A stretch of 64,000 nt of DNA from an uncultured Gammaproteobacteria bacterium (GTDB taxonomy: Bacteria; Pseudomonadota; Gammaproteobacteria; Competibacterales; Competibacteraceae): assembly GCA_963696515.1 (NCBI GenBank), contig CAVOKM010000007.1, positions 2,541-66,540 on the forward strand, read 5' to 3'. Shown here piece after piece: positions 46,510 to 63,628 of this stretch. How positions within the stretch are numbered: the stretch's first letter is position 1; each line of letters begins with the position of its first letter. The translations under genes and the position numbers were made by a program. The notes under the pieces are model-generated. The model saw only the letters and a list, made by a program, of their open reading frames with translations. It did not search any database and was not told the DNA's origin.

Positions 46510-47320
46510 TCAAGTCTCCAGCCATTGTCCCAAGCGGCCCAGCAACATCCGCCCAAAACGGAACATCTCCTCCCGCCGCGTCTCGACCAGCGCCACCAAA
46601 TCCCGGTCATCGCCCCAGATCCGGCCCCGCCTCGTCCCGGCGCCGCGCCGCGGTCAACACCGGCTCCGCCAGCGCCCAACCTAACAACTCCGCCAAATCG
46701 TCCACCAGATGCAACGGCTCCAGATGCGCCAACCGTTCCGCGTTCAACCCCGCCTCCACCAGCAATTGCGCGCTCAACCCTGCCAGCAACCCGCGCAGCC
46801 GCCGCATGACCGCTGCATCCGGCGCCGCGACAGCCGCCCGTGGCCCGACTGGCGCCAAACCGCGCCATGCCAGCACCGGACCCGTGCAAACACCCACCTG
46901 TTGCAACTGTTGCTCCAGCGCCCGCCGGGCGTGGCCCGCCATCATCCGCCGCCAGTCCGCGTACCGGCTCAAACCGTCGGACCGGAGCAGGCAGGCGCGC
47001 AACCGCAGGTACAGCCCAGAGTCGCCGGACGATGGCCCGAACAGATAACCCCGCACGCCGCCGTCCCCATCCAGGAACGTTACCGGAACGCCGGCCTCGG
47101 CGCAGGCCAGCAAGGCGTCGCAGCTCCAGCGCACTCCGCCCTTGCTCAGCACCCGCGCCAGCCGCGCCAGCGGATAAAACACCGCCGCCCGTTCCGGCTG
47201 CCGGACCCGCAGCGCTGGCCCGTCCAACTCCACCTCCAAACCATTCCGCCCTTGCAGATACAACGGCTTGCGCGAACCCTCCGCGTGCTCTTCCAGCAAA
47301 CCGTGAAATTCAGCTCGCAT
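46510..47320 (-). CDS. Degenerate Cas1 paralogue (about 270 aa; frameshift near 46620)
   Basis: Cas1 N-terminal beta domain (PLYL...LDGPALRV...PLARLARV...AGVPVTFLD..G) and eroded AGLN...DLAE; lacks LEGxAA and RRPPxDxxN. Confidence 0.7.
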
Positions 47321-48281
47321 CGTCTCCGCCCTCCGGCAACGCCGGCGCTCGCCCGCTCAGCCAATTCGCCAGCCGGTAGCACTCCCACCGCAGATAGCGG
47401 CGCAGCGGCGGAACCCAGAACTCGTAACCGGCGTAAAAGGTCTGCCGGCCCGGTTTGTCCAGCAAACAGGCTCCCTTGTCGAACAGAAAATCCTCCGCCC
47501 GCAGCCGCCGCTCGCGGAATAGCGCCCACACCCAACCGTCCAGCCGGGGCCGCAGCGGCTCGATCAGATCGCACGCCAGCGATTCGCGGCCATAAGCGGG
47601 TTCATGAAAAAAACCGAGCAAGGGGTCCAGCCCCGCGCCGTGCGCGGCGCGCACCGCCTCGAAATGCAACAGCGTGTAACCCAGCGACAGACAGGCGTTA
47701 ACCGGATCGCGCGGCGGGCGACGGTTGCGCCCGGTGAAGTTCAGCGACGGTGGGAACAGCGCGGTCAGACCCCCGTAATGCGCCGCCGCCCCAGCACCTT
47801 CCAGCCCGAGCAGCACATCCCGATCGGCCGCACCGCCCACGTCCGGCAGCAGCCGGCGCAGGGTTTCCAGCGCATCGTGCAACGGCTTGCGGACATCGGG
47901 CCGCTGCCCCAGCGCGGCGTCGAGCAGGCGGATTTGCGCCCGCAGCTTGCCCGCGATCAACTGGCGGGCCAGCGGCAACCGGGCTTCCGGATCCAGCGCC
48001 AGTTGATATTGCGCCAGCCGGCGGCGAGCGTCGCCGTGGCCAGGACCGAGCACAATCGCGGTGCGCCGGCTGTGCCGGGCGCTCAAGCACACCACGCTGG
48101 TTCCCTGCTCAGCCAGCGCCCCCAGCACCCCGCTGTCGAACCGCACCAATCCGCGCAGCACCACCCGCTCCAGCAACGCCAGCGGCACCCCGCGCGGCCG
48201 GGCTTCCGGCTCCTCAATCACCAACCGCTTGCTATCCAGCCGCAAATTCAGATTGCGGCGATCCAGATAGAGCGTACCCAT
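47310..48281 (-). CDS. cas1: Cas1 integrase
   Basis: LLGLEGAGAAAHY, RNRRPPRDPVNACLSLGY, GFFH, LACDLIEP. Confidence 0.96.
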   Translation of the reverse strand: MGTLYLDRRNLNLRLDSKRLVIEEPEARPRGVPLALLERVVLRGLVRFDSGVLGALAEQGTSVVCLSARHSRRTAIVLGPGHGDARRRLAQYQLALDPEARLPLARQLIAGKLRAQIRLLDAALGQRPDVRKPLHDALETLRRLLPDVGGAADRDVLLGLEGAGAAAHYGGLTALFPPSLNFTGRNRRPPRDPVNACLSLGYTLLHFEAVRAAHGAGLDPLLGFFHEPAYGRESLACDLIEPLRPRLDGWVWALFRERRLRAEDFLFDKGACLLDKPGRQTFYAGYEFWVPPLRRYLRWECYRLANWLSGRAPALPEGGDDAS

Positions 48282-48347
48282 GTTGCACCTCGCATGTTTC
48301 ACTCCCCTCGCCCTCTGGGAGAGGGGGCCGGGGTGGGGGAAAAATAC

Positions 48348-48632
48348 TCACCCTACGTAATAGAACTCCGGATCGCTTGGCCGAACCGCGATGCCCAGCC
48401 CGCGAATGCCCCGGTCATCCGGCAGCGGCAGCAACAGAAAACGATCCTCGCGCGGCTCGAGCACCTCGCGAATCGCATCCAGCAGCGCCAGCCGTTCGCG
48501 GGCGGTCAGAAAGCACTCGAACACCGACTTCTGCCCGCCGCAGGCGTAGCCTTTCAGCACCCGCAGCGCCGCCTGCAACCGATCGGGATCGGTCACGTCG
48601 TAGGCGGCGAGGTATAAGAGACGGGCGGACAT
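48348..48632 (-). CDS. cas2: Cas2
   Basis: YLAAYDV, QKSVFEC, EDRF. Confidence 0.92.
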   Translation of the reverse strand: MSARLLYLAAYDVTDPDRLQAALRVLKGYACGGQKSVFECFLTARERLALLDAIREVLEPREDRFLLLPLPDDRGIRGLGIAVRPSDPEFYYVG

Positions 48633-48695
48633 CGGTGTTCTCCGGCGATCAACCTGGCCATGGTTATACGCCGGCGCGAGCGAATCGGCGGGAAC

Positions 48696-48707
48696 GGCAA
48701 GCTTGCC
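48696..48707. promoter_or_regulatory. Palindromic operator candidate upstream of cas2-cas1
   Basis: GGCAAGCTTGCC, 27 nt before TATAAC on the minus strand. Confidence 0.6.
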
Positions 48708-48713
48708 AAGACA

Positions 48714-48750
48714 CCCCTCGCCCTTTGGGAGAGGGGTTGGGGGTGAGGGC
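48714..48750. repeat. 37-bp REP-like element (degenerate third copy at about 48304-48339)
   Basis: CCCCTCGCCCTTTGGGAGAGGGGTTGGGGGTGAGGGC. Confidence 0.8.
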
Positions 48751-48753
48751 GCT

Positions 48754-49053
48754 TCAATCCAGCCGAACGGCTGTCACCCGATATTCTTCCAGCCGCGCCC
48801 CGAAGCGGCGCAGATCGGCGGCGGACAACTCCCGCCCGCGCCATTCCGGTGGCAGTTCCAGGCTCAGGTGCAGATAGCGCCCGCCGCACTGGCAAACCCG
48901 CGCCGCCAGGTGGATCGGCAGGGTGCCGATCACCACATCGCCGGGCTGGATGGTATCGGGATCGAGATGAGCGAGCCGCGCATTCACGGCGATGCCTTCC
49001 CCGGCGGCCCAGTCCAGCGCGCCGGGATGGCGGGTGACGAAGAGGGTGGTCAT
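48754..49053 (-). CDS. csx16: CRISPR-associated Csx16 (putative ring nuclease)
   Basis: FVTRHPGALDW, GDVVIGTLPIHLAA, RGRELS. Confidence 0.9.
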   Translation of the reverse strand: MTTLFVTRHPGALDWAAGEGIAVNARLAHLDPDTIQPGDVVIGTLPIHLAARVCQCGGRYLHLSLELPPEWRGRELSAADLRRFGARLEEYRVTAVRLD

Positions 49054-49442
49054 GCGAGCAACCGATCCTGCAATTCTGGGTAATGGTGAAAAACCCCGTC
49101 CAAACTGATCAGCGCCGCGTCGTGGATCAGCGTGGTCGCGATAATCATCCGGTCAAAGGGGTCGCGGTGAATCGCCGCCAGATCCACGGCAAGGCTGGCG
49201 ATCTCCGGACTCAGCGGTAACAATCGGATTCCCGAGGGTTCCAAAGCCTCCGCGAACCATTGTGAGGTGGCGCATGGTAGCAACAGACGGCCGCGCTGGG
49301 CCGCCAGCGCGACCTCATAGCAGGACACCACCGATACGCCCAGCGACTCGCTTTCTTCCAATGCCGTCCGCATCGACGCGGAGAAAAGGTGATGTTCCAA
49401 GTTGATCCACCAGAACCAGACATGGGTATCCAGCACGATCAT
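49050..49442 (-). CDS. vapC: VapC/PIN toxin
   Basis: MIVLDTHVWFWW, HRDPFDRMIIAT. Confidence 0.9.
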   Translation of the reverse strand: MIVLDTHVWFWWINLEHHLFSASMRTALEESESLGVSVVSCYEVALAAQRGRLLLPCATSQWFAEALEPSGIRLLPLSPEIASLAVDLAAIHRDPFDRMIIATTLIHDAALISLDGVFHHYPELQDRLLA

Positions 49443-49669
49443 TTGAGGCAATCCCAATCTTCCTCCGGCACGATCGGCGCGATCAGATCGCCTAGCGTCT
49501 TGCCTTTCCCGGCGATGCTGGGCGCGGGGCGGCGCTTCGCCGGTGACGGCAACACCGGTTCGTCCAGCACCAAAAAAATGGCTTCCACCCGACGGTTGGG
49601 CGGCAGCGTGGGCAGGGTTTTCAATCGGCCCTGCGGATCGGTTTCCAATAGCATTTTTTCGGCGTACAT
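49439..49669 (-). CDS. Putative antitoxin
   Basis: 76 aa; ATGA overlap with vapC; GDLIAP...EDW tail. Confidence 0.75.
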   Translation of the reverse strand: MYAEKMLLETDPQGRLKTLPTLPPNRRVEAIFLVLDEPVLPSPAKRRPAPSIAGKGKTLGDLIAPIVPEEDWDCLK

Positions 49670-49721
49670 CTCAGCCTTACTCCAAAGCGCGATGAAGAGT
49701 GGTCATGGTTTCGATATTCCG

Positions 49722-50927
49722 TCAGGGCAGCAGGCGTTCGAGCAGATCATCCAGAAATGCCCGCAACTGCTCCGCGCTGGCCAGCGCCTTCTGGATTTCC
49801 GCCTGTGGCGACATATTGCCGTGCGCCAAGTGATTGCGGAGATCGCGCAGCAGGCAATAGCGCTCGTATTCATCCTGGCGTGGATGAATGGCCTTATTCC
49901 GCGCTTCATACTCCTTTTTGACGGTTTCCCGCTGCGTCCAGTTATCCGGATTGGTCATGCCCTGTTGCTGCATCAGCCGGGTAATGAACGCCTCGAAGCC
50001 CAACAGCGCGGCTCGCAGAAAGTCGCCGTGTTCGAGATAGAGGCGCGCCAGCGCCTGTTGCCGCAGATAAAGTCGATCCTCTCGATGCCACGACAGCCGG
50101 GCGCGCAAGGTCGGCGCGAACAAAGAACCGATTCCGGTGAGAGGTCGCCGATCAAACAGGGCGTCCAGTTCGCGCAGTTTGCCGCGGGCCTGGCCGGGTC
50201 GCGTGATGCGCTCGTAGAACGCCGATTCCCGCAACAGGCCGGCCGCCGCCGGCGACTGCTCCCGCATCAGTGTGGCGAACACCCCGTAATCGCCGTCCTT
50301 GTCGAAGGACTGCACCGCGCCGGTCCAGTCGGCGATGTCCAGCAAACCTTGCAGGTTCATGACCGGCGTCAGGCCATCGCGGGTCATGTCCAGCGCGCCA
50401 TAGTAGAGGCCGCGAACTTCGACGTTCTTTACCCGGCGCAGGTACAACGCGCTCATCTGCGCCAGCATCGGCAAATGCCGCAGGCCATGCGTCACATCCA
50501 GCGTCACCGCGTCGCCTTCGGCGGTGTCCAGAGCCATTCGCTGCAAAATCCCCACCTGCTCGTCGGTGTCGCGGCCGTATGGAATAAGGCGCAATACGAC
50601 GAGGAGCCCCAGTCGCTCGCTCACTACCGAACTCAAACGATCCAGTTCCTCTGGCGTGGTCCGATCGGCATCGGCGGATTCCGTCAGCGCCAGCAACGCC
50701 TCGTCGTGTTCCTGACCGAGCCCCAACGAGAACAGCAGCACGTCCCACATGCTGCCGGTGGTGCCCAGAATCAGCAACCGATCCGGCCTGATTTGCCGGG
50801 TGAGGCCGAGGCCAAAAAACTCCGTGGTTTGCTGTTGGCCAGCGCCGAATACATAGGTGGCTTGGCGATAACGCTTGCCTCGGTCGGGGTTGCCACGGCC
50901 GAGAAAGGAGATGAGGGTGTGGGTCAA
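49722..50927 (-). CDS. csx1: Csx1-type CARF-HEPN ribonuclease (TIGR02221-like)
   Basis: LISFLG, LGTTGSMW, LDVTHGLRHLP, YYGALDM; HEPN RNHLAH; TTG start with GGAG RBS. Confidence 0.88.
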   Translation of the reverse strand: MTHTLISFLGRGNPDRGKRYRQATYVFGAGQQQTTEFFGLGLTRQIRPDRLLILGTTGSMWDVLLFSLGLGQEHDEALLALTESADADRTTPEELDRLSSVVSERLGLLVVLRLIPYGRDTDEQVGILQRMALDTAEGDAVTLDVTHGLRHLPMLAQMSALYLRRVKNVEVRGLYYGALDMTRDGLTPVMNLQGLLDIADWTGAVQSFDKDGDYGVFATLMREQSPAAAGLLRESAFYERITRPGQARGKLRELDALFDRRPLTGIGSLFAPTLRARLSWHREDRLYLRQQALARLYLEHGDFLRAALLGFEAFITRLMQQQGMTNPDNWTQRETVKKEYEARNKAIHPRQDEYERYCLLRDLRNHLAHGNMSPQAEIQKALASAEQLRAFLDDLLERLLP

Positions 50928-50961
50928 TAAGTAGCGCTCCAAAAGCCAGGGGATTGTGGAT

Positions 50962-51396
50962 TCACGCGGTTGCCAGGGGATGCCGCCAACGCAAACCCGG
51001 ATATCGGGCAAATCCTCTATCGGTTGTGATCCAATCGCTGTCGGACTCTATCGCCATCGCGGCCAGGTAAGCATCGGGGATCGAATTGCCGGTCGCGGCG
51101 GCAGCGCGACAGAGTTGATCGAAAATACCCCAGTGACGCGGGCCGGGTTGCACGATCACGCATCGAGGATGCGCGCGAATCTGTTCCGCGAAGGCGAAGG
51201 CCACATCGAGCGGCGTGGGGGCGCGGAATATCCTCGGATGGGTCACGATGCGCAGAAACCCGCTCAAAACCAGTTCCGCAACGCCAAAGGATTGGCCTCG
51301 GGTCTAGACGTCCTCGAACCAGTTGCGATAAAGACCGTGATCTGGCGTATCCTGACGATGAGCGTAAACCAGCACATTGACATCAGGCAGGATCAT
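50962..51396 (-). pseudogene. vapC: VapC/PIN toxin with an in-frame TAG at codon 31
   Basis: MILPDVNVLVYAHR...EDV*...GFLRIVTHPRIF...PDAYLAA...TTDRGFARY. Confidence 0.85.
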
Positions 51397-51625
51397 CGGC
51401 GTCGTCCATGATCGCGAGTAAAGCGGCGGAATTATTCAAGTCTACACCGGGCAGGAGTCCGCCTTGGCCATAAGTGATCAAGCGCACCGATGGAACGGCT
51501 TGTTGTCGCGCCAACCAGTCACGCAACGCCTGTTCCACGATTTCGTTCACATCATGATGCGTAGCGGCGGCGATATTTTCCGTTGCCTTCAACAAATCGT
51601 CGGGTAGTTGAATGGTCGCTGGCAT
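51383..51625 (-). CDS. vapB: VapB-like RHH antitoxin
   Basis: TIQLPDDLL...IVEQALR...GLLPGVDLNNSAALL. Confidence 0.8.
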   Translation of the reverse strand: MPATIQLPDDLLKATENIAAATHHDVNEIVEQALRDWLARQQAVPSVRLITYGQGGLLPGVDLNNSAALLAIMDDADDPA

Positions 51626-51664
51626 GGAATTTCCTCCTACCAAAGAATTGAAGCCGGATATGGT

Positions 51665-52831
51665 TCAAACGATTTCAACGATCCGCCAGTTATTGCCGCC
51701 GATCCGCTCTACGATCAGTGTCGCCGTAACCGCCTTGCCCTTGTCGAGCTTGTTCCGTTGCTCGGCGCTGAGTTTCTCGCGCAGGTCCATCCCTTCCTTG
51801 CCGCCAGCGAATGCCTTGCCCTGAGCAGTCGCGCTGTACAGTTCCCGCTTGCCCTTATTCCAGGACAGAGCCGCGTTTTCCCAGCGCTGCGGGCCTGTTT
51901 CGGGCGCGGTTATGGCGCTGCCTTGGATTTCGCTGGCGGCAGGCGCGGATTTCTTGGTCTCGTCCGGCTTCGAGCGCTGTCGGGGAACGGTCTCCACCGT
52001 GCGCATCGCTCCGTAACCCACCGCCGTTTTCGCGCCGAACCCCAGCCAGTCGAAAGCGTGCCGGAACGCGGATTCCAACAGGGTTTGCCAAGAATTCCCA
52101 AGCGATTTCGGCAGCATGGCGGGATCGCATTGCACGAAGAACTCAAAGCGACTGCCCGGCGGCACGGTCAGGAACAGGATCGGATTGGGCTGGCCACTAT
52201 CATGCGGCGTGGTGTTACCCTGGTAGTAGTCGCCGTAATGCGGGGTCATGATGTCCACGGCCAACTGGCCACTGGCGGGTTCAGGAATCACGTCCCAGAA
52301 CATCAACGCGCCCCGGTTGCGATTGGTTTCATTATCGCCTGATGCCGTTTCCCGCCCAAATAGCGCATCAATGATCTGCTGGCTCCAGCCTTGAGTATCA
52401 CCGTAATCACCACAAACCAGGTTTTCTGCCGCCTGCCGCAGTACGCCCTTGACGCCGCTGCCGGGGAGATAGGGAATCCCATACGGGTTGAGAAAGGCAA
52501 AACCGTTTTCCAGCGGATGCTCGTTGCCCAGGCCGGTCATGAACGGGGCGACGGATTGCGCGGGCAAGCGCCAGACCGAATCGCCGAGGACGTCGGCCAG
52601 CGCTTTCTGTCGGTCGAGCAGGCTACTAGCCATTCGCCAGGCATCATTGCCGAAGGGAATGATTCGGCGAATCGCACCCTGTTTGCCCTTGTCTTTATCG
52701 TCCTTGCTATCGGCTTCCCGGAGCCAATCAGTTAGATTCCACAGTTGGAAGTACAGCCCGAAGCGATGTCCTGGGGGAGCCTCAGCAAAGAGTTCCTGTT
52801 TTACATAGCTTGGAACAGCGGCAACGGCCAT
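51665..52831 (-). CDS. cmr6: Type III-B RAMP Cmr6
   Basis: GLGNEHPLENG, PYLPGSGVKG, DIMTPHY, GFGAKTAVGYG. Confidence 0.95.
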   Translation of the reverse strand: MAVAAVPSYVKQELFAEAPPGHRFGLYFQLWNLTDWLREADSKDDKDKGKQGAIRRIIPFGNDAWRMASSLLDRQKALADVLGDSVWRLPAQSVAPFMTGLGNEHPLENGFAFLNPYGIPYLPGSGVKGVLRQAAENLVCGDYGDTQGWSQQIIDALFGRETASGDNETNRNRGALMFWDVIPEPASGQLAVDIMTPHYGDYYQGNTTPHDSGQPNPILFLTVPPGSRFEFFVQCDPAMLPKSLGNSWQTLLESAFRHAFDWLGFGAKTAVGYGAMRTVETVPRQRSKPDETKKSAPAASEIQGSAITAPETGPQRWENAALSWNKGKRELYSATAQGKAFAGGKEGMDLREKLSAEQRNKLDKGKAVTATLIVERIGGNNWRIVEIV

Positions 52832-52853
52832 ATCAAATCTCCTCGATCATCCG

Positions 52854-53066
52854 CTAGGCGTACATGAGCCGACGGCCCTTGGGAGCCGGGATAGACTCGC
52901 TCTGTTCGCGGGCGACATCAAGCCAGAACGCCATCGCGTCCCGCACATTGCGCAACGCTTCCTCATAACTATTACCGTGAGCCATGCAGCCGGGTAACTC
53001 AGGGGCCTCTGCGAGGAACGCCTGATCCTCGTTGCTCCAGTAGATGATGATCTCGTAATGGTTCAT
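52854..53066 (-). CDS. hicB: HicB antitoxin
   Basis: WSNEDQAF.AEAPELPGCMAHG. Confidence 0.9.
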   Translation of the reverse strand: MNHYEIIIYWSNEDQAFLAEAPELPGCMAHGNSYEEALRNVRDAMAFWLDVAREQSESIPAPKGRRLMYA

Positions 53067-53317
53067 GACTGATCTCCAAGCTTGTATTGAATGATCACGT
53101 TCCTGACTTGACGCACCTGATAGGGTTTGGCCTTGCCATCATCCCGTTGCAGGTTGATCTTTTCGGCAATGCCGGGTTTTGTGAACAGATGATGACTACC
53201 CCGTATCCGTTGCTCGAATCTCAGCCAGAGCAGGAGTCCACGAAGTTCGTCGAAGCCGATGTTGGCGTCGGACATTCCCCGTAAAATCTGCTCGAGCAAT
53301 CTGTCATGCTTGCCCAT
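53063..53317 (-). CDS. hicA: HicA toxin
   Basis: RGSHHLF, KAKPYQVRQV. Confidence 0.9.
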   Translation of the reverse strand: MGKHDRLLEQILRGMSDANIGFDELRGLLLWLRFEQRIRGSHHLFTKPGIAEKINLQRDDGKAKPYQVRQVRNVIIQYKLGDQS

Positions 53318-53319
53318 AC

Positions 53320-53760
53320 CTACCCCGGTGCCCTTGCTGCCGCAAACTGGCGAATCCAGCGTAATAGAGCGAGGGTTTCCTCGGTGGCGCGGCGGAAGAG
53401 TTCGGGTTTGGCGTTGTACAATGCCGGCATGACCGTGTTGAAATAAGCATCTTGCTCAGATGGAAAGTCATTACCGCCAAATTGACGACCCAACCAGCGC
53501 ATGAGGTGAGCATTCAGGGCGTGGTAACGATCCATGATGCTTTCTTTCGTTTTGCCTTTATCCTGATAGAAAGCCAGCGCTTGCATCAGCCCATTGTTCA
53601 TGATCAACGCCGGCGCGGCCTTCGCCAATTTGTCGTAATCCTTGGGGATATGCTGAACGCATTCCCAAGAATAGGCGGCTCGCTGTTGGTCGAGGCTGGT
53701 GGTTGACAGGGAGGCTTTGGATTTCAAGGTAATCGTCGCTTTGGGTGTGTAGTCGGCCAT
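53320..53760 (-). CDS. cmr5: Type III-B small subunit Cmr5
   Basis: LDQQRAAY, PALIMNNGLMQALAF, ATEETLALLRWIRQFA. Confidence 0.92.
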   Translation of the reverse strand: MADYTPKATITLKSKASLSTTSLDQQRAAYSWECVQHIPKDYDKLAKAAPALIMNNGLMQALAFYQDKGKTKESIMDRYHALNAHLMRWLGRQFGGNDFPSEQDAYFNTVMPALYNAKPELFRRATEETLALLRWIRQFAAARAPG

Positions 53761-53762
53761 GA

Positions 53763-54707
53763 TTATCTCTCCACCGCCTTGCATACCACTTGCCCACGTC
53801 CGGTCGTCGCATCACCGCCGATTTGCAGCAGCTTGCCGTCCAGTCCACCGAAACCATTACCGTCGCCCGCAAGCACAATTTGGAGTGCCTGCCCGGCATT
53901 GAAACGCATTTTGTCGCCGCGAATTTTGTCGGTGGAGCGTTCGGCCGACGCCATGACCGGCGCGAGCAACAGGCTTTCCGGCGGCAGGTTTTCGGTGTAG
54001 AACAGGCCACCATCATCCGCCGTCCCGGTCTCGTTATTGATCCGCACATGCGGTTCAACCACTGTGGCGTTACGGACGAAGTAGCTAAAATCCTCGTCGG
54101 ACAGCAGTACCAAATCCGTTTTCAACTTTTCGCGGAAAAAATCGTAAGCGGCATCCGGCGGCAGCGCGTGTTGAGAGAGCCATTCGGTGACTTTCATCAA
54201 CGATTGATCCATATGTGCCGTGAATTCAAATGCTTCCAAATGCAATTTATCGCCGTTCATCAGATTGTGATTAGCCAGTTTGCAATGTCCAGCCTCAACG
54301 GTCACTGTCGGCCAGTCGGAATTTGCCCCGACCAATGCCAAGGTTCTAGCGGTCCGCGCCAGCGCTGTCGGCGATGTGGCGTAAACAAAAGCGCCCTTGA
54401 CGCAACGCACCGGAAACGCGACCAGTTGCGCGTCGCCGAAGCTGACCGCGCCGGCGAATTCCGAAGCATCGGTTTCCGGCCCGAACAGACGGTTAAGCAG
54501 GTTGGCCTTGTCTTTGCGGCTGCTATCGTCCAACTGACTCCAAAAATGATGTCGCACCGCGCCTTTGAGCCCGGAACCGGCGATCATGGGATATTCGGTA
54601 TGCCGTTCCCGTTGAATGGGGTTGTCGATCAGGCCGATGGCCGTACCCGCCCCCATGTGAACCGGACTGACACAATAGATAAACAATGCTTTCGATGCTT
54701 CAAACAT
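53763..54707 (-). CDS. cmr4: Type III-B RAMP Cmr4
   Basis: SPVHMGAG, IDNPIQRERHT, GSGLKGA, LQIGGDATTGRG. Confidence 0.96.
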   Translation of the reverse strand: MFEASKALFIYCVSPVHMGAGTAIGLIDNPIQRERHTEYPMIAGSGLKGAVRHHFWSQLDDSSRKDKANLLNRLFGPETDASEFAGAVSFGDAQLVAFPVRCVKGAFVYATSPTALARTARTLALVGANSDWPTVTVEAGHCKLANHNLMNGDKLHLEAFEFTAHMDQSLMKVTEWLSQHALPPDAAYDFFREKLKTDLVLLSDEDFSYFVRNATVVEPHVRINNETGTADDGGLFYTENLPPESLLLAPVMASAERSTDKIRGDKMRFNAGQALQIVLAGDGNGFGGLDGKLLQIGGDATTGRGQVVCKAVER

Positions 54708-54716
54708 GACGGTTCC

Positions 54717-55142
54717 TCATTCCTTGACCGGATCAAGCGGATTGACAATTTGCAGGCGGTCGGCCGCCGCAGGTTTCAGGCGAAGATCGTTGGTCCAAAA
54801 CTCCGTGCAGCCGTGATGAATGGCGGCGGCCAGATGCAGCGCATCAGGGGTCTTGAGATTTTGGAAAGCACGCAACTCAGTGGCGATTTCAAAAACCTGT
54901 TCGTTGATCAATAGCCGACTTGTTTCAGGCAGGCTGAAAAAATTGTCGTATTCCTCCAGAATTCGTTGTTGCCCTTTGCGCAGTGGCAGCGCCCGGCATT
55001 CCAAACGGGTCAAGCCAGTGAAACACAGTTGTCCGCCACCTGTTTTACGTTTTGCCAGCGCTTGATAGCAAGTCTCCCGGAAAGGGTCTGTCCCCTCAAT
55101 CAAATAGATCACAATGCAGCTATCGAGGTAGATTGCGGACAT
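54717..55142 (-). CDS. vapC: VapC/PIN toxin
   Basis: IYLDSCIVIY, LKTPDALHLAAA, FWTND. Confidence 0.9.
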   Translation of the reverse strand: MSAIYLDSCIVIYLIEGTDPFRETCYQALAKRKTGGGQLCFTGLTRLECRALPLRKGQQRILEEYDNFFSLPETSRLLINEQVFEIATELRAFQNLKTPDALHLAAAIHHGCTEFWTNDLRLKPAAADRLQIVNPLDPVKE

Positions 55143-55386
55143 CATCACGCTCCCATGAATGGCGTTCTTCTTCGAGGTTGCGATCTATTTCTTCTTGGGT
55201 GCGACGGGGAATATCCGCTTCCTGCAAATGTTGCATGAATTCTTCGAGAGAGCGGGGTTGGCCGACAGCCGGCGTTTCGGGATACAGCACGATGACCTCC
55301 GCCATGCCGGGCGGCACATCGGCGGGTAATTGCAGACTCAGCGTATGTTCGGCGCTGATCTGGGCAGGCAGTTTAATAGCGCGCAT
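55120..55386 (-). CDS. Putative antitoxin
   Basis: GGAG RBS; LPADVPPG.AEVIV; RTQEEID..LEEER.SW; overlaps vapC. Confidence 0.75.
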   Translation of the reverse strand: MRAIKLPAQISAEHTLSLQLPADVPPGMAEVIVLYPETPAVGQPRSLEEFMQHLQEADIPRRTQEEIDRNLEEERHSWERDDVRNLPR

Positions 55387-55406
55387 GGGATGTTCTCCTT
55401 TCAGTT

Positions 55407-56606
55407 TCAAGCAGTTTTTGGCCACGCTGCAATCAAGATATTGTTAAAACCCTCGGCGCGGCGGCTGGGATCAAGGTAGTCGCCCATCGCCCAGAAACCT
55501 TCGGCGGCAAGCTTGCCGAGCGCTTCGGCCTTGCCCTGGAAATCGTCAAACCAGTACACCGAACCCACCGGTGCGACGCGCTGCGCCGGTTTCGGTTGCC
55601 ACTGCGCCAAATCCCAGCCGCTGACCGTATCGGCGCGATGGACCGCCGCCGCAACCAGCCGCGCCGTGCAACCGTCCGGGCCATGCCAACAGTTGTCCGC
55701 ATCAAGGCCGGGCAAGCGCCAGCCGTCGGCGAACAGGCCGGGCGTCGCCAGCACCAGCCGAAACCGGCATTCTTGTTCGATGCGCCGCCCGTCGGGAGCC
55801 GGCAGCAGGTTCTTGGGCGAGACCGCTTGCAGCGCCGCGCCGCGTCCGTCGCCGCCGAAGCGCAACAACCCGTTTTCCGGCAACAAGCCGCTCGCGCCGT
55901 CCACGCCGTCCACGCCGACCAGAAAACCCACATCCCGCAGTCGATTGCGACCATCGCGGTGGTTCAGAGCGACGGTCTGCGCGGTGTACAGCATTCCCTT
56001 GGCGACGGTGCGTTGCGCGCCGTTCAAGGCGATGCCGAGACGGTGATCGAATTGCCAGAGTTCGCCGCCGCGCAGCAGGTGTTCCTTGCCGAGTTGTTCG
56101 CCGTTGAGATACGCGCCCAGCCCGGCGGCGTTCAACCACAGATTGCCTTGCGGCTTGGCCGGATCAGCGGCGCGCAACAGCGGCGCTTGCGGGAGCGCGT
56201 AGCTGCTGGACAAGGCGGAGTGCGGCGCGGTCGGCTGGAGATACGTCGCGTCGTCCAGCGCCTTGGCCGTGACCACCACGTCCGATGGCAGCGGAAAACA
56301 CGGCTGTACCTGCCCCTGTTCCCGACAGGCCAGGGTGAACAGGCTGACCCGGAAATCGCCCGGCTTTTGCGGCGTGCCGAGGCAGGCGTGCAAGGCGTCG
56401 GACAGCTCCGGCAAGCGGTCGCGGGCTCGGGCGAAGGCGGCCAAGTCCACCTCGTGCGCGGCCAACATGCGGGAACGCAACGCGCCGGCGGCCAGCGACG
56501 GCCACGGCGGCATCAGCGCCTCGCCATAGCTGCCGGCGTCGCCAAACAGCTTGTTGCCGCGCAGATAAAGCACGTCCAGGGGTTCGATGAAACGGTATTC
56601 AGTCAT
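55407..56606 (-). CDS. cmr3: Type III-B Cmr3
   Basis: IEPLDVLYLRG, FGGDGR, SGWDL, PVGSVY, EGF. Confidence 0.95.
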   Translation of the reverse strand: MTEYRFIEPLDVLYLRGNKLFGDAGSYGEALMPPWPSLAAGALRSRMLAAHEVDLAAFARARDRLPELSDALHACLGTPQKPGDFRVSLFTLACREQGQVQPCFPLPSDVVVTAKALDDATYLQPTAPHSALSSSYALPQAPLLRAADPAKPQGNLWLNAAGLGAYLNGEQLGKEHLLRGGELWQFDHRLGIALNGAQRTVAKGMLYTAQTVALNHRDGRNRLRDVGFLVGVDGVDGASGLLPENGLLRFGGDGRGAALQAVSPKNLLPAPDGRRIEQECRFRLVLATPGLFADGWRLPGLDADNCWHGPDGCTARLVAAAVHRADTVSGWDLAQWQPKPAQRVAPVGSVYWFDDFQGKAEALGKLAAEGFWAMGDYLDPSRRAEGFNNILIAAWPKTA

Positions 56607-59572
56607 GGCGATTCTCCTTGTCGCTGTTCGCGCGGCCTTCGCGGGCCAGAAATTCGGCGACGGCCAGAAAATCGCGGATGAAGTCGGGGGCGGTGCCTCG
56701 GTCTTCCTCCGGCCTGGAGGATGAGGCCGCGAGCGTCACCGCCAACTTGCCGAGTCCCCGCCCTAAATCGGTGGCGCATTGCTTGTCATCCCCCTGGCAC
56801 TGCCGGGCGAACTGATAGGCCAGATTGTCGGCCAGCAGCTTTTCGTACAGCGCCGGATCGCTGAACTCGCCGGGCGGCGGCAGTTGCGGCAACCAGCTTT
56901 GCGCCAGATAGGCCACGCGCCGCGACAGTTGCGGGTTGGCCAGCGCCTCGCGCAAGCGCAGCAACATCCCGATGGGGGTGCTTTCCAAACCTTGTGCCGG
57001 TTCGAGACCGTCAAACCAATGGCTGACCAGTTCCACCATGCCGCCGGAACGCTTGAGCACGCGAATGGCAAACGCATTACGGCCGCCGCGGTTCTTGGCC
57101 TGTTTCTCCGCGTCCCGCAGTTGCCGCAATACCGCGCCCAGCGAGGCGGAATGATGAGCGACGACCGCGCCGGCGGAGGCGGTCGCTTCGCGGCCCATCA
57201 CCCGATATAGCCGGTCACGAAGCAGCACATGACCGCTGGAAATCTTCAACCGATTGTCGTCCACACCCAGCAAGCGCCAGGCATGATTGGCGGCATCGCC
57301 GGTTGGAAACACCCCGCTGTAGGCCAGTCGCAGCAGCGCCAGCGCCGGCAACAGATCATCCACCGACACCATCGCCAACACGTCATCGCCACCCGCGTAA
57401 ATCAGCTTGCCCTTGCAAACCGTCTCGACGATATACGGGGCCAGATGCAGCGCGAAGCTGTTGAGCGCCGAGGAAATGGCGATGTGGCGGGCGGGCGAAA
57501 CCGGGCGTTTGGCCTTGGCGTAACTCTGCAAGTCCGCTTGCTGGAATTTTCCGGCGATGGCCTGACGAATTTGCGGATGCCAGGTTTTCTGATACTCCAG
57601 AGCGTAAGCCTTTTCACCAGACAGCCACGCGCCCATGTTGTCGCCGTCCAGCATGATCAGCGCGTAATAGGCTTCGGGTTTCTGGCCGAGCACTTTCTCG
57701 ATTAAGCCGTTGACGCCTTGCAAAGCATCATCGTCAACGCTGTCTTCAGCTTCGCGCAGGGTGTCCAGCCAAGCCGGCAACCGTTCGGCGATACGCCGGA
57801 CGTGCGAGGGATACTGGCCCCAGCGCAATTCATCCGCGATTTTCCGGGGAAGCGTAGCGCGCTCGGTCGCCGCTTCCATCCGCGCCGCCAGCTTGCCCAC
57901 GTCCCGATCCATGATGTCGGTTTTACCAGAGCGGCCTTGCAGCCAATTCCATAAGCTGGTCGCCAGCGCCATCGTATGCGTGGAGACGACGTAGCGCCGC
58001 ATATCCTGATCGAGCTGGCCCTTGATTTCTTTAACGAACAGCGTCGGCCACAGCCGCTTGAGCGTACACGGGGCGCAGAGATGCTCGCCCTTCCGCGCCC
58101 AAGGCGATTTATCCTCGGCGATTACCGTCCAAAGCGTCTTGCGCTCGCCGGGCGGCAAGGCCAGTTGATCGCGGTCGGTGGTCAGCCATTCCCGCTCGCC
58201 GCACAGGGAGCAGCGATAGCCGGTTTGCTCCAGTTGCGCGAAGGGTCGCACCGCCTTGGCCGCCGCCTGCATCCGATCCAGCAGATCGTAAAGCGCGGGA
58301 TAAAGCACTCCAGCGTTTGGGTAATAAAAGCGTGCGCCATCGACCTTGATTTCCCGGCTCAACAATTTCCAAGCGTCCCCACCTAGAAAACCCTTGTCGC
58401 CAGGCCGGAATGGCGCTTGGGCCGCTTCAAGTTCCTTGACGTCTACCCCCGACCCAGTTTCCTGTACCAGCGGCGCGAACGGAACCAGCGCCCAATGAAC
58501 TTCCGGGAAATTTTCCAGTTGCGCGGTGATTTGTGCGTGAGCGTACAGGTTTGGAGCGTTGGTTATGTCGGCGGTTTTTAACAACTCCGTTAGTGCGGCT
58601 TCTGCTTTTTCCTTCACCCACGCCCGCACGTCAGCGGTGATTTGATGCGCCAGTTTCGCGCCTGAACCCGCCGGGACGATGGCGACAAACTTGTTGGGCA
58701 ACGCAGCGGCGAACAGCGGATTGGCGTCGGTTTGCCGGTTCAGCCAGTCCGCGCCGTCAAAGTAATGCTCCGGCAGCCCCATGTCCTTGAGCAACCACAA
58801 ATCCACCTGCGGCACGCCGCGCAGTTGCGGAAAGATCGCCGCATCCGGTCCCAGTTGCTCGCAAATCACCTTCAAGCCTTCCCAGGCCAGCCGGGACAGC
58901 AAGTGCGAACCCGCCCACAAATCGGAGGTGGTGCGCGCTTGGGCGATGAAATCCTGAACCGGCCCAAAGCTCATCGCCAGCAGCGCCGGGTTTTTTTGCG
59001 GATCGAGAGCAAAAGCGCTGGCAAAAGCAGAGGTCAGGTCAAGATGATTCCAGATCGTGTGATCGGGCACGCGGGTATCGGCGGGCAACAGTTGCCAGAG
59101 CGCGCCCAAATCACTGGCTGGCGACTCCGGCCCGAAGCGCCAAAACGCAAGCGCCGTATTTTTCCAGTCCACCGCTCCGTTATCCGGGACAATGAATCGC
59201 TGAAAGTGATCGGTGCTGATCGCTTTCAGTTGCGCCGGTTCCAGCTCCATTTTTTTCAGGTCATATTCTTCTCCGGTCAGCGGGTGACTTGAGTACCGGC
59301 TGTTCGGCAAAGTTAATCTGAGTCCATTTCTGATAGCGCCCGCCGTCCTGATCCTGCGGAAATTGCGGACGGTCGGCAGCAGCGGCCCAGCGATCCGCTT
59401 GGTGAATGTGCTGTTTGATGGCTGCGGGAATCCCATCAGGAAAGAGTTGTTGCCGCAACTTCCGCACGGTGCCGCCTTCATGGCCGGCGGGGTCGCGCAA
59501 CAGCACCAGCGCCTTTTCCGCTGGGTCGTGAATCCAGGCGGCAAGTTTGGTTTGCCAGAGAGAGTCAGTCAT
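56599..59572 (-). CDS. cas10: Cas10/Cmr2 (frameshift near 59280)
   Basis: WIHDPAEK N-terminus, PADTRVPDH, GPVQDFIAQAR, Zn finger, DGDNMG, intact YAGGDD cyclase motif. Confidence 0.96.
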
Positions 59573-59584
59573 TTCGTCAAATCC

Positions 59585-59812
59585 TTATGGTAAGGTCTCA
59601 AATGAACGGCGCGGTAGTCCGGATTGCCGGATGATGGATTGCAGGGTACCAATCCTTAACTCGGCATGATGGGGTACAGGAACAGTTGTCGTACCGTCAG
59701 GTGTTACTTTCTGCATGACGATATGGCTACCACGCCGCCTGACTTCGACGAAGCCATGGCTTCGCAAAATGGCACAGACCGCCTCACCTGAGAGCACCCG
59801 TAACTTGGCCAT
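59585..59812 (-). CDS. hicA: HicA toxin
   Basis: GFVEVRRRGSH, VPHH.EL.IGTLQSIIRQ. Confidence 0.92.
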   Translation of the reverse strand: MAKLRVLSGEAVCAILRSHGFVEVRRRGSHIVMQKVTPDGTTTVPVPHHAELRIGTLQSIIRQSGLPRRSFETLP

Positions 59813-60021
59813 CCGCCACCTCGATTTGCGTGATGTAAATCTCCCCGGAAACCCGCTGTGTTATTTCCCCCGGGGAGGGCACATTCCAAAAACAACTCAA
59901 CGGCTTCTTGCAAATTGTTTCGCGCCGAAGGGATGTCATCCCCTTGGCTTGCAATATCCAATTCCGGGCATAGGGCGACATAACCTGTTCCTTCCCGTTC
60001 GATGATGGCGGTCAGTTTCAT
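59784..60021 (-). CDS. hicB: HicB antitoxin (frameshifted)
   Basis: MKLTAIIEREGTGYVALCPELDIASQG. Confidence 0.85.
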
Positions 60022-60065
60022 GGTTTGAATTCCTGAATTGGGATCAATCAAAAAGAGGCTTTAAT

Positions 60066-61176
60066 CTACGACTTGCATTTAAGTGGCGATGTATGTTTTC
60101 CCAGATTTTCTGCTCGTTCTCTTCAATCCAAGCTTTCTGCTTCCCCCTCCAGATCGGTACTCAATTTATCAGGGAAACGGCAAGGTAAATGGAATACCAT
60201 ACCTCGTAACCGATCCTTAGTGTCTCTTACAACTTTGAAACGGAGTTGGCTTGCCAATCGCGCCTCTTTCCCGAGTTTACGAATCTCCCATTTGCCACCT
60301 GCTGGGTAACGGAGAAGATGAATTCCTCCAATACCGGACGGACCCTGGATGGTTTTTGCGCTGTACCTCACTTCAACTTTGATGTTTGCAAGACAGCCCA
60401 TAACGGCCCTCCAATCTGGTTTCGGCTCCGAAATCCAAATAAGTGGTTTTCCTTCTTCAGTGCCCAAGGCGTGCGGCCAATCCTCTTTAAGGCACTGTTT
60501 CCAAGGCCGACAAATTTGGTTGAGTATGACATCGTCAAGCTGCGGCAATACTGATAAAATCAGTTTATTTTCTTGAGCAGGTTCAAGCACAACAGACCCC
60601 CAACCGTTACGAGATCGACTTCCCAAGGATCCAAACCATTGGATCAATTGCAGAGCTGTCGAAATATCATCCTTTAATTTGTGCTCAAACCCCAGACATA
60701 GCTCTTTGGAATCTGTAGGGTTAATAGCGTTCCGAATCGTAATACGTGGGCGATTTTCTTTTTTGCTTGGAGGTATAACCGGCCCATATCCCATATAAAA
60801 ATCAGCACGAACTCGACCTTTGCCATCGCGTGTAGTCACAACATCATCAATTGAACCGCCCGGCCATGTATTGGATGAGAATCCACCCATGACATCCCAA
60901 TAGGCACGGCTGGTAACTGATTTAGCTCTCCTTTATTCCAACTACAATCGAGCCTCACTTGACATTTACAGAGTTTCATCCGCGGCATTCCCAAACAATC
61001 TCCCTCCGCTTCACGCAATCTGACGTGGTCGTATTGTGCTCTTTCGCCGCTGCCACCCGCCACCATTGCCGCAGCAGAATCTTGAACGGCGGGGTGCGCC
61101 AAGCCCCATTCTGTTCGGCATCGCCCAGAAAAGCCGGTGTGACAAAACTTACGGTGTAGAGTTGTTTAACCATCAT
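60066..61176 (-). pseudogene. cmr1: Cmr1, multiply frameshifted (3' limit approximate)
   Basis: FVTPAFLG, LLRQWWR, FGSLGSRSRNGWGS, RLASQLRF. Confidence 0.8.
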
Positions 61177-61268
61177 GCGTGCAATCTCCATGCTGTGTTC
61201 GAAATAGTGGCGGTTATATAGTCTTGCCAATGATTATCCGTGCATGTCTGACCTTCGATCAACCCTGT

Positions 61269-61294
61269 TAGGGGCGACCGGCCGGTCGCCCCTA
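61269..61294. repeat. GTAG-type REP palindrome
   Basis: Perfect 26-bp TAGGGGCGACCGGCCGGTCGCCCCTA. Confidence 0.7.
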
Positions 61295-61344
61295 CGGATA
61301 TCGATTGGGAAGTCTATAGCGCCCGGCAAAGGTCGTTGTCCGCC

Positions 61345-61360
61345 CCGGCAAGCTTGCCGG
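61345..61360. promoter_or_regulatory. Palindromic operator candidate upstream of cmr1
   Basis: CCGGCAAGCTTGCCGG; 12-bp core 28 nt before TATAGACT. Confidence 0.6.
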
Positions 61361-61361
61361 C

Positions 61362-62498
61362 TCAGTCCCCCTCCAAGCTGGCGAACCGAATCTGATGCGG
61401 TTCCAGGCCCAGCGCGTGGCCGGCGAGCCGCTGGGTCCCCTGGCGCTGGGGCGCGTAGCGCGCGGCCATCGGCGCGCCCAGCATCCGGCTCAATTCCCGC
61501 TTGAGCTTGCTGGTGCGCTCTTCGAAGAACGCCTTGCCGATGCCCTCCTCGCGCCGGGCCGCGATCAGCGGATGGTCGTCATCGGCCAGCGGATCGTTCA
61601 GCGCCGCCTTATGCTCGATCAGAAACGCCGTGACCTCGGCGTGACCGATCCGCTTCCAGTGCAGCGGCGGCAAACCGGCCAGCGCCCGCCGGGCGAACCA
61701 GGCCAGCCAGGCAAAGCTGATCGGGGTCAGCCGCAGCACGGTTTCCCCGCAGCCCACCCGGCAGGTCGCCACATCCAGGGTCAGGCTGGGCGAACCCAGG
61801 TTGCGCTGGGCCTGCCGCACCACCTGGCTGAAACTCGCGCCCTCGCGCAGCAACGATTCCTGCAAGCCGTCGCGCAGCCGCACGAACGGGATATCGGCCA
61901 GCATCACCTCGGCGTCGCTGGCGTCGAGCGGGCGCTGGTCGGGGCCATTGCCGAAAATTACCCGCTCGACCGGCGCCGGATAGAAGAAGTTGGGGTTGGA
62001 CTCGAACGCGTTGGACACCAGCACATGGGACAGCCGATCCTGCGGGCGGCCGAACAGCGACAGCGCGTAGCCGAGATAGAAACCCATGGTCTTGCGTCCG
62101 CCGGCGATGGAGGCGTGTACCACGCTGTCCGGGTCGGCGGTCAGCGCGCGCACCGTGGCGGTGATGGCGTCGGCGATGGCTTCGTTGTCGGCCACGCCGC
62201 GAATGTCGTTGAGCAGGCGACCGTCGGCGGCGCGGAGAATGTGGATCGTGTCGAGGGTAAAGCGAATTTCGGGCAGGCCGTGGTCCCGGCGCAGCCGGTG
62301 GAACCAGCCGGGCTCCTCGCTGAGCAGGGTCAGCCGCGCCCGTTGCGCACCCTCGGCTGTGGTGAGCAGGTGGATTTCGGTCGGCACGAAGCGGGGCTCG
62401 CCCGTGACCGTCAGGGCGTACAGGGTCTCGGTGACGATCTGCGGCGACAGGCCGGCGACGCACAGCAGGATACGGCGGGGGAAATTTTCCGGGTTCAT
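61362..62498 (-). CDS. NE0113-family CARF protein (Csx14/Csm6-annotated) with C-terminal winged-HTH-like domain
   Basis: GLSPQIVTETLYAL, SIAGGRKTMG, QDRLSHVLV; C-terminal LTLD...V...LRLTP..FAWL...SKLKREL; no HEPN RxxxxH recognised. Confidence 0.85.
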   Translation of the reverse strand: MNPENFPRRILLCVAGLSPQIVTETLYALTVTGEPRFVPTEIHLLTTAEGAQRARLTLLSEEPGWFHRLRRDHGLPEIRFTLDTIHILRAADGRLLNDIRGVADNEAIADAITATVRALTADPDSVVHASIAGGRKTMGFYLGYALSLFGRPQDRLSHVLVSNAFESNPNFFYPAPVERVIFGNGPDQRPLDASDAEVMLADIPFVRLRDGLQESLLREGASFSQVVRQAQRNLGSPSLTLDVATCRVGCGETVLRLTPISFAWLAWFARRALAGLPPLHWKRIGHAEVTAFLIEHKAALNDPLADDDHPLIAARREEGIGKAFFEERTSKLKRELSRMLGAPMAARYAPQRQGTQRLAGHALGLEPHQIRFASLEGD

Positions 62499-62566
62499 GG
62501 CAGCGTCCTCAATTCAGTATAGTGCAAACGCAGCAACAGTAAACCCGGAGAGACAAAATTACCGCT

Positions 62567-62582
62567 TCGGCAAGCTTGCCGA
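62567..62582. promoter_or_regulatory. Palindromic operator candidate upstream of the CARF-wHTH gene
   Basis: TCGGCAAGCTTGCCGA; core 27 nt before TACTGT. Confidence 0.6.
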
Positions 62583-63554
62583 TCAATCCATGACCAATCG
62601 ATACCGCCCCAGCCCCATGACCGCGCCCTTGCCGGCATGGGTCCACTGGCCGAGCCAAAGATACGGCCAAAATGGCTCCAACCCAGCCCCATCCAATTCG
62701 ATTTCGCCCAGCAGCCCGCCCATTTGCAGCAGCGTGTCCTGGCGCGAGGAATAGCGGACCCATTCGTGCCAGCGCAAGCGCGCGGCTCGATGCTGGATTG
62801 TCCAGCCGGCCCGGTTCAGCGCGGCGAAATCGACAACCAACGGAGTGTCGGTATGGAAGGTGGTCAGCAACGAAATCCGCCGCAACAGGTTGGCGAACAG
62901 CGCGCCGAACTCGAACGCCTCCGGTCCCACCAGCTTTTCGGCCTGTCGCAACCGCAGCGGTGTTTCCAGACACAACGTCATCCGCGCCGGACAGGGCGGC
63001 GGTTCGGGAACCCTCGGCGGCAAGGGTTGCAGGGACCCGCCAGGATGGTAAATGACTTGCCATTCTCCAGTCGGCGTTTGCTGAGCGACCTGGGCCAATT
63101 CCAGCAGGCCATCGCTCTGGCCGATGCCGCGCCGGCCCGCCTGGTCGAAGGCGTGCAGTACGTAGGGCAGATGCCGGTTGCCATGCCCGAACAACACCAC
63201 GTCCACGCCGACCGACGCCCCGACGATGTGCGCTCCCCCTTCGCCTGGCCGCAGCAGATACGGGTGCGGAGCGGTGGGGTACTTGCGCAGCTTGCCGGCA
63301 GTCGGGTCGGGTGGGGTCTCGAACAGGTAGGGATAAACGCAGGAGCGGTACAGCAGGCAAGCCGGACAGGCCGGTTCGCGGGTGACGCAGACTAGCCGCT
63401 TGAGCGCATGGCCGAACACCCCGCGCCAGGCGGACCCGGCATAAACCGGCAGGCGCAGCGGCCCCAGAGCCGTGAAGCGCAGTTGGTAGCGGGCCACCGG
63501 CAACGGCGGCACAGCGATGGGGGCCGGATAGGAACCGGCGAGGGGAGCGGGCAT
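62583..63554 (-). CDS. cas6: Cas6 crRNA-processing endoribonuclease
   Basis: GSAWRGVFG, Cys cluster CxxxxxxCxxCxxxxxCxY, GKGAVMGLGRY; alternative start 63587. Confidence 0.92.
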   Translation of the reverse strand: MPAPLAGSYPAPIAVPPLPVARYQLRFTALGPLRLPVYAGSAWRGVFGHALKRLVCVTREPACPACLLYRSCVYPYLFETPPDPTAGKLRKYPTAPHPYLLRPGEGGAHIVGASVGVDVVLFGHGNRHLPYVLHAFDQAGRRGIGQSDGLLELAQVAQQTPTGEWQVIYHPGGSLQPLPPRVPEPPPCPARMTLCLETPLRLRQAEKLVGPEAFEFGALFANLLRRISLLTTFHTDTPLVVDFAALNRAGWTIQHRAARLRWHEWVRYSSRQDTLLQMGGLLGEIELDGAGLEPFWPYLWLGQWTHAGKGAVMGLGRYRLVMD

Positions 63555-63612
63555 GGGCGCGATCCTGATAGGAAACGACGGTATCATGCCACGCCCGCCG
63601 GCGAGGGCGGGA

Positions 63613-63628
63613 CCGGCAAGCTTTCCGG
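63613..63628. promoter_or_regulatory. Palindromic operator candidate upstream of cas6 (1 mismatch)
   Basis: CCGGCAAGCTTTCCGG; core 26 nt before CATGAT, with a TGn extension. Confidence 0.55.

Follow-up and report, generated by a model that had tools for sequence, protein, structure and literature searches.

Organization of the locus and a recurrent palindrome

The window analysed here, a stretch of 64,000 nucleotides of contig CAVOKM010000007.1 from a Competibacteraceae assembly (2.64 Mb, 28 contigs, 61% G+C), contains a type III-B CRISPR locus in which a gene for an NE0113-family protein lies among the genes for CRISPR RNA (crRNA) processing, interference and adaptation. Along the minus strand the gene order is cas6, NE0113, cmr1, a hicB/hicA-like pair, cas10, cmr3, a vapB-like/PIN pair, cmr4, cmr5, orf84/HicB, cmr6, the Csx1-type effector gene, cas2 and cas1 (Table 1). 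A palindromic 12-mer, GGCAAGCTTGCC, recurs at five places in this locus, and we propose that it is probably the operator of the NE0113-family protein, which would act as a cyclic oligoadenylate (cOA)-sensing regulator of the cas promoters.

An earlier, sequence-only reading of this DNA had placed copies of the palindrome upstream of cas6, NE0113, cmr1 and cas2-cas1 and within the 3′ end of cmr3, and all five were found at these positions, four of them exact and the one ahead of cas6 with a single mismatch. The gene assignments of that reading also held for cas2-cas1, the frameshifted cmr1, the NE0113 gene (TIGR02584), cas6 and cmr3, the last with a PIN toxin gene behind it that has a small open reading frame (ORF) upstream. 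Cas10 carries an intact GGDD motif. Five matches to the box in the window compare with 0.38 expected by chance, and none of 100 shuffles reached this number. The copies had appeared by eye to be confined to the cas locus, and this rarity extends to the genome: the whole assembly has five exact copies of the 12-mer, of which four lie within this 15 kb locus. The fifth, at C1:58300, was rejected as a regulon member, as it lies inside an ORF of 713 aa and has no −10 element at the relevant spacing.

The box is an inverted repeat of 10–14 bp with the core CAAGCTTG. Its 10-mer form is [G/A]CAAGCTTG[C/T], and the flanks lengthen it to CGGCAAGCTTGCCG. The copy ahead of the NE0113 gene (Box 2) is a candidate for autoregulation, and that inside cmr3 (Box 4) marks a candidate internal promoter for vapB-PIN-cmr4-cmr5-cmr6. 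The box scan found no copy ahead of the gene for the Csx1-type effector.

Table 1. Boxes, genes and CRISPR array of the locus, in window coordinates (box and hexamer sequences are those of the coding strand)
Feature	Position	Strand	Remarks
Box 1	63615–63626	−	Upstream of cas6; GGAAAGCTTGCC, 1 mismatch; −10-like CATGAT at 63583–63588
cas6	62583–63587	−	PF10040, 3.4e-16
Box 2	62569–62580	−	Upstream of the NE0113 gene; −10-like TACTGT at 62536–62541
NE0113-family protein, candidate regulator	61362–62498	−	378 aa; PF09623, 5.4e-47; TIGR02584
Box 3	61347–61358	−	Upstream of cmr1; −10-like TATAGA at 61313–61318
cmr1	60123–61233	−	Split over three frames in this assembly
cas10/cmr2	56599–59544	−	PF12469 and PF22335; GGDD intact, residue 718 of the ORF
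cmr3	55407–56606	−	PF09700, 2.3e-57; Box 4 in its 3′ end
Box 4	55506–55517	−	Inside the 3′ end of cmr3; encodes G-K-L-A; −10-like TACCTT at 55473–55478
vapB-like ORF, PIN toxin, cmr4, cmr5, orf84 + HicB, cmr6	51665–55425	−	All downstream of Box 4
Csx1-type CARF-HEPN effector	49722–51011	−	TM1812 family; DxTHG, RNHLAH; TIGR02221, 188 bits
Box 5	48696–48707	−	Upstream of cas2-cas1; −10-like TATAAC at 48663–48668
cas2-cas1	47310–48632	−	cas2 48348–48632, cas1 47310–48302; PF09827 and PF01867
CRISPR array	41751–43339	+	37-nt repeat, which contains a GGCAAG stretch

The box is conserved at the same five places

Full-length relatives of the NE0113 protein number in the thousands, with close homologues coming from Competibacteraceae. 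Through NE0113 homology (45–87% identity) we fetched 80 loci, which span Competibacteraceae, Chromatiaceae, Accumulibacter, Thauera, Methylococcales, Nitrospirales and Acidobacteria. Cultured carriers include Thauera aromatica LG356, Ectothiorhodospira shaposhnikovii DSM 243 and Thiocapsa sp. KS1. The core recurs in the related loci, about 100 in all, at the same five places as in the window, so that the association of the motif with NE0113 genes, proposed from the single locus, extends across phyla. Ahead of NE0113 itself there are 65 boxes in the 80 loci, most often 66–83 nt before the ATG. The box before cmr1 is found at the same position in at least 16 related loci, that before cas6 in 14 and that before cas2 in 6.

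The copy inside cmr3 occurs at 18 sites in the 80 loci, 91–109 nt before the end of the gene, where it encodes x-K-L-A/V. The codon pair AAG-CTT is found at the same codons in 18 of 22 cmr3 genes, and CTT accounts for only 7.9% of the leucine codons of these genes, which argues that the constraint acts on the DNA. In these relatives the internal box is followed, in the same register, by a −10-like element.

Among 400 genomes sampled from the class, NE0113 was found in 39 and a close Cmr3 in 19; since 18 of these 19 also carry NE0113, the effect of the regulator can hardly be told apart from that of the cmr genes within III-B loci. A full NE0113 match is missing from just three III-B loci in the sample: two are too distant, one of them with a truncated NE0113 remnant, and the third belongs to the genome G195, which is considered below. 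A separation in the opposite direction is provided by locus L096 (G373:C54), from an AT-rich genome, which encodes a 31%-identical NE0113 and whose fetched 12.5 kb yielded no cmr genes. This locus holds three copies of TGACAAGCTTGTCA (at 2182, 5681 and 7388), against 0.21 expected. They precede NE0113, an outer-membrane protein (OMP)/TPR operon and ssb, and in the latter two cases lie 28 nt before GATAAT and TATAAT, respectively. Thus, the box tracks the NE0113 gene even where no cmr gene is nearby. A PIN gene and an ORF6N gene lie downstream of the regulator in L096.

The box lies at a fixed distance from a −10 element

The sequence-only reading had noted a −10-like hexamer 26–28 nt past each box and no −35 element at the canonical spacing. 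On the coding strand, TATAAC (cas2-cas1), TATAGA (cmr1), TACTGT (NE0113), CATGAT (cas6) and TACCTT (inside cmr3) indeed start 27, 28, 27, 26 and 27 nt after the 12-mer. Across 164 non-redundant sites, the pattern TAnnnT starts 28 nt from the core in 35 cases and 29 nt from it in 15, compared with about 0–4 sites at the remaining offsets; the one exception is a minor peak of 9 sites at offset 48. On the mirror side of the box there is no TAnnnT at offsets 28–29, so the spacing is one-sided and confined to the gene side. No −35 signal was detected across the same 164 sites. Both the fixed spacing and the absent −35 element are therefore borne out in the related loci.

These promoters have the layout of activator-dependent (class II-like) sigma-70 promoters, in that a −10 element is present, the −35 element is absent and the site abuts the −35 position, with TAnnnT at 28–29 nt in 50 of the 164 sites. 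The centre of the box lies ~33 bp before the −10 element, or at roughly −45 if transcription starts ~7 nt past the −10. Two other promoter readings were rejected on spacing: a sigma-54 promoter, for which the spacing is 9 bp instead of 12 bp, and a −35 role for the TTGCC half of the box, which would leave a 26-nt spacer.

The geometry bears on the annotation of cas6. Its listed ATG falls inside the −10 hexamer, which makes the in-frame ATG at 63552–63554 the likelier start; homology among relatives begins around residue 33, in agreement with this later start, and we consider 63552–63554 probably the true one. At the NE0113 promoter a second −10-like element, TATACT, is found at 62516–62521, ~48 nt past the box and 20 bp beyond the first. 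It recurs in NE0113 promoters of Competibacteraceae and corresponds to the small second peak of the spacing distribution. In Accumulibacter-type loci (L034:15044, L047:11373, L052:15051, L066:14991, L073:15111 and L040:8704) there is an extra box with the same −10 spacing, and the gene behind it starts M-x-I-N-L-A after an AAGGAGA ribosome site.

The NE0113-family protein combines a CARF domain with a predicted winged helix

The NE0113 protein belongs to its family by clear margins (237.5 bits with TIGR02584, whose cut-off is 80.65; 160.7 bits with PF09623, whose cut-off is 23). It consists of a CARF domain (residues ~1–235) followed by an OmpR/PhoB-type winged helix (residues ~238–375). Among solved structures, the CARF domain is closest to those of Cad1, Crn1 and Csm6, and its Foldseek matches are the CARF domains of Cad1, Sso2081, Csm6 and Can2. 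Cad1 is of the CARF5 clade and responds to cyclic tetra-adenylate (cA4) and cyclic hexa-adenylate (cA6) (PMC12669630, PMC12825302). Given a Cad1-like CARF domain and a GGDD-containing Cas10 in the same locus, the NE0113 CARF domain would be expected to bind cyclic oligoadenylate.

The last ~145 aa, in which the sequence-only reading had seen a winged helix-turn-helix-like C-terminus, are indeed predicted to fold as an OmpR/PhoB-type winged helix. They are modelled at a mean confidence (pLDDT) of 92, with strands at residues 8–25 of this segment, helices at 28–42, 55–69 and 91–109 and a hairpin at 120–131; the model thus has the N-terminal β sheet, helices α1–α3 and C-terminal β-hairpin wing of an OmpR/PhoB effector domain. 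In a VIA structural search with this C-terminal model, the top 25 matches are all OmpR/PhoB effector domains (Z 5.3–8.3, residues 6–142), the best being BaeR (Z 8.3), CadC (8.2) and GlnR (8.0). A profile of 43 diverse C-termini searched against the PDB matches a Deinococcus response regulator (3q9v/3q9s), KdpE, RstA and PhoB in their DNA-binding domains, at marginal E values (0.003–0.05).

Two copies of NE0113 give a symmetric, CARF-mediated dimer model through residues 98–235, with a score of 0.71 against 0.00 for the best control. Of 30 solved homodimers 20 attained the mark for a dimer, as did 1 of 23 single chains. The runs share at least 63% of contacts and the partner pLDDT is at least 84. 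As solved CARF dimers exist, resemblance to them may account for this result. The symmetry of the dimer matches that of a palindromic site.

An NCBIfam scan of NE0113 gave TIGR02584 and two sub-threshold matches only, and the protein is not a member of the Csa3 family (TIGR01884). The NCBI name of its family is "ring nuclease Csm6", and the ring-nuclease label rests on this name only. Csx20 was rejected as a family name, as that name denotes a small relative of Csx16 (PMC8284326). When the variants of the box (an AACCTT centre, A/T at outer positions) were set against residues of the recognition helix, no pattern of covariation was apparent by eye.

A candidate cOA-responsive activator of cas promoters

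The explanation that we find probable is that NE0113 is a cOA-sensing CARF–winged-helix regulator, probably an activator, of cas promoters devoid of a −35 element, and the interpretation of the sequence-only reading is supported to this extent, each computational check that it had proposed having turned out in its favour. The palindrome would be the operator of NE0113, to which the protein would bind as a two-fold symmetric dimer, each subunit contributing a CARF sensor and a winged helix. Lying directly upstream of the would-be −35, the operator would serve five sigma-70-type promoters: those of cas6, of the regulator's own gene, of cmr1-cas10-cmr3, of (vapBC)-cmr4-5-6 within cmr3, and of cas2-cas1. 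We infer that the bound dimer recruits RNA polymerase in the manner of an activator, and that cyclic oligoadenylate, made by the GGDD-intact Cas10 upon target recognition, binds to the CARF domain and alters DNA binding or activation. Infection sensing would in this way retune processing, interference and adaptation genes jointly.

Several observations weigh against this explanation. OmpR/PhoB domains normally bind direct repeats about 10–11 bp apart. Here the associated site is an inverted repeat, whose half-sites abut with their centres ~7 bp apart, and the docking geometry of OmpR-type domains on such a site is unexplained. Winged-helix extensions are also present on CARF ring nucleases (Crn1) that are not known to bind DNA, and Pfam returned no match for any of the 43 C-terminal domains, its Trans_reg_C model being silent. 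The comparison loci were all chosen through NE0113 and are not independent of one another. The 12-mer SGCAAGCTTGCS is scattered, in 12–24 copies compared with 0–5 for a control word, in four genomes (G238, G353, G293 and G307) in which NE0113 was not found among the matches listed, so that the word is not unique to this system; among the matches listed, NE0113-positive genomes and the rest have about 3.5 and 1.8 copies per genome, a modest separation. The III-B locus of G195 keeps boxes before cmr1 and inside cmr3, but a Cad1-type adenosine deaminase gene takes the NE0113 position upstream of cmr1 in the otherwise syntenic locus (L081, G195:C6, 10924–11682), and this 99%-complete genome gave no match to TIGR02584 or to the winged-helix profile. 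In seven RNA runs, only 5–7% of the words are present, as contigs of 90–95%-identical relatives that give neither transcription starts nor strand.

Some of these observations would be accommodated if the box were bound by another factor, either a host regulator or another protein of the locus, and NE0113 were only a cOA sensor or ring nuclease with a structural winged helix. The boxes that persist in G195, the NCBI name of the family and the abundance of the 12-mer in some genomes where NE0113 was not found all point in this direction. We nevertheless consider it improbable: NE0113 is the only gene found to be common to the III-B loci and L096, where box and spacing recur together, the loci share no further conserved DNA-binding protein, and the cmr3 of G195 has an in-frame TGA, which suggests that the boxes of that genome may be relics. 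A different sign of regulation is somewhat less improbable, if still unlikely. NE0113 could be a repressor or dual regulator at the same operator, with the apo-dimer blocking the −35 region and upstream contacts and keeping cas genes low until cOA releases it. The −35 position would be covered by a dimer bound to a 14-bp palindrome whose end is ~28 nt from the −10, and negative autoregulation is just as compatible with a box at the regulator's own gene. However, promoters that have no −35 consensus are typical of activator dependence, at no promoter does the operator reach into the −10 or the presumed start, and OmpR/PhoB-type domains beside the −35 usually activate, as is generally known for PhoB and OmpR.

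The palindrome might also act in RNA as a small hairpin; in read-through transcripts it could, for example, form a terminator-like element, a site for processing or one related to Cas6. The word can pair into a 5-bp stem around an AGCU loop, several copies sit just past the stop codon of the upstream gene, and the stem of the type I CRISPR repeat of one genome holds the same 12-mer (see below). Yet the 8-bp core is invariant in sequence and not merely paired, one-sided changes of the outer positions (A..C at 18 sites, G..T at 8) are common relative to symmetric ones (A..T at 4), copies before the first genes of operons (cas6 and cas2) would escape transcription, and the strict one-sided spacing to the −10 is a property of DNA; a role in RNA is thus very unlikely. 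That the box is a functionless chance or compositional repetition can practically be dismissed, even though it is a short word with a HindIII site that has dispersed copies in other genomes, given the outcome of the shuffles, the positional conservation across phyla and the constraint at the level of codons.

With NE0113 taken as a cOA-sensing regulator, its wider role can be considered tentatively. It is possible, if doubtful, that NE0113 proteins are widespread transcription factors gated by infection signals, with a near-invariant operator (CAAGCTTG 28 nt before the −10) and a modular regulon. In III-B loci they would place crRNA processing, interference and spacer acquisition under cOA control, in part by way of the promoter inside cmr3, and in other lineages the same switch would have come to act on non-CRISPR genes such as those for ssb, envelope proteins and toxin-antitoxin modules. 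Were this so, type III signalling would reprogramme host transcription, beyond activating collateral nucleases.

Other features of the locus and the window

In this assembly cmr1 is split over three reading frames, with one of the breaks near 61033, while its relatives have a single ORF of about 345–400 aa; an RNA contig from a relative has an extra G after 61033, and the split represents either a pseudogene or an assembly error. The cmr operon carries three inserted toxin-antitoxin-like pairs, namely the hicB/hicA-like pair (59585–60060), the vapB-like/PIN pair (54717–55425) and orf84/HicB (52854–53317). The vapB-PIN pair lies directly behind the box inside cmr3, an arrangement also seen in loci L021 and L060.

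The CRISPR repeat of the window contains GGCAAGGTTTCA, which the sequence-only reading had taken as a half-site of the palindrome. The stretch is present, but it is not conserved: it was found only in this genome and one close relative (L045), other III-B repeats of the type differ there, and we rejected it as coincidental. The full box (CCGAGGCAAGCTTGCCTCGG) lies in the repeat stem of a type I array (L101, G403:C1:270927-272032), in 16 copies. This array belongs to a Nitrospirales genome that also carries locus L078, and it adjoins genes for a Cas4-Cas1 fusion and for a Cas3 whose HD domain is C-terminal. The presence of the box there could be a coincidence or could link the regulator to another array.

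Elsewhere in the window there are two cyclic di-GMP-I (c-di-GMP-I) riboswitch aptamers, at 19806–19901 (−) and 35473–35556 (+), with 55.2 and 52 bits, above the Rfam gathering threshold. A set of G-rich tandem repeats at 39646–39898, ~2 kb from the CRISPR array, has units of 23, 33, 46 and 65 nt based on the pattern GTGGGGG...GGGGAGT.

Relationship to known systems

Known effectors that type III CRISPR signalling activates are nucleases, proteases and deaminases. For bacteria an effect on transcription has also been predicted, with regulation of transcription by NE0113 proteins proposed by Makarova et al. (2014; PMC4012209), but no operator or regulon is described for it in searchable papers, and in the literature searched we found no paper that describes the box, the regulon or a promoter within cmr3. 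The present locus supplies a conserved DNA site with a defined promoter geometry and a candidate regulator made of two recognisable folds, so that cOA control of cas expression and adaptation becomes a directly testable question. The spread of such a regulon would be illustrated by the candidate promoter inside cmr3 and by boxes reused ahead of genes outside CRISPR.

The closest solved CARF domain is that of Cad1, a CARF-adenosine deaminase of the CARF5 clade (PMC12669630), and in G195 a Cad1-type gene takes the same position in the locus. The effector of Cad1 is a deaminase, whereas the C-terminus of NE0113 is a predicted DNA-binding domain. The CARF fold also matches those of the Crn1 ring nucleases Sso2081 and Sis0455, small CARF proteins of type III loci, but Crn1 enzymes degrade cA4 and no operator is known for them. 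With OmpR/PhoB response regulators such as PhoB, KdpE, BaeR and GlnR, NE0113 shares the predicted effector fold and a site beside a missing −35, as at pho boxes. It differs from them in having a CARF domain in place of the receiver domain and an insertion of ~40 residues between helices, in its association with a compact palindrome instead of direct repeats, and in giving no score with the Trans_reg_C model.

Further parallels are Csa3a and Csa3b of Sulfolobales and Csa3 of Thermus, which are CARF–winged-helix transcription factors (PMC8699464, PMC8844856). Like NE0113, Csa3 combines a CARF sensor with a winged-helix DNA-binding domain and is encoded in cas loci; it binds or is expected to bind cA4, and its sites at cas promoters, among them promoters of adaptation genes, are palindromes to which the NE0113 box is the predicted counterpart. 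NE0113 is set apart from Csa3 in that it is not a member by sequence, its CARF domain is Cad1-like and its DNA-binding domain is of the OmpR/PhoB type. Furthermore, NE0113 is bacterial and lies within a type III-B locus, with a candidate regulon that comprises cas6, the cmr genes and cas1-2 and includes an intragenic promoter.

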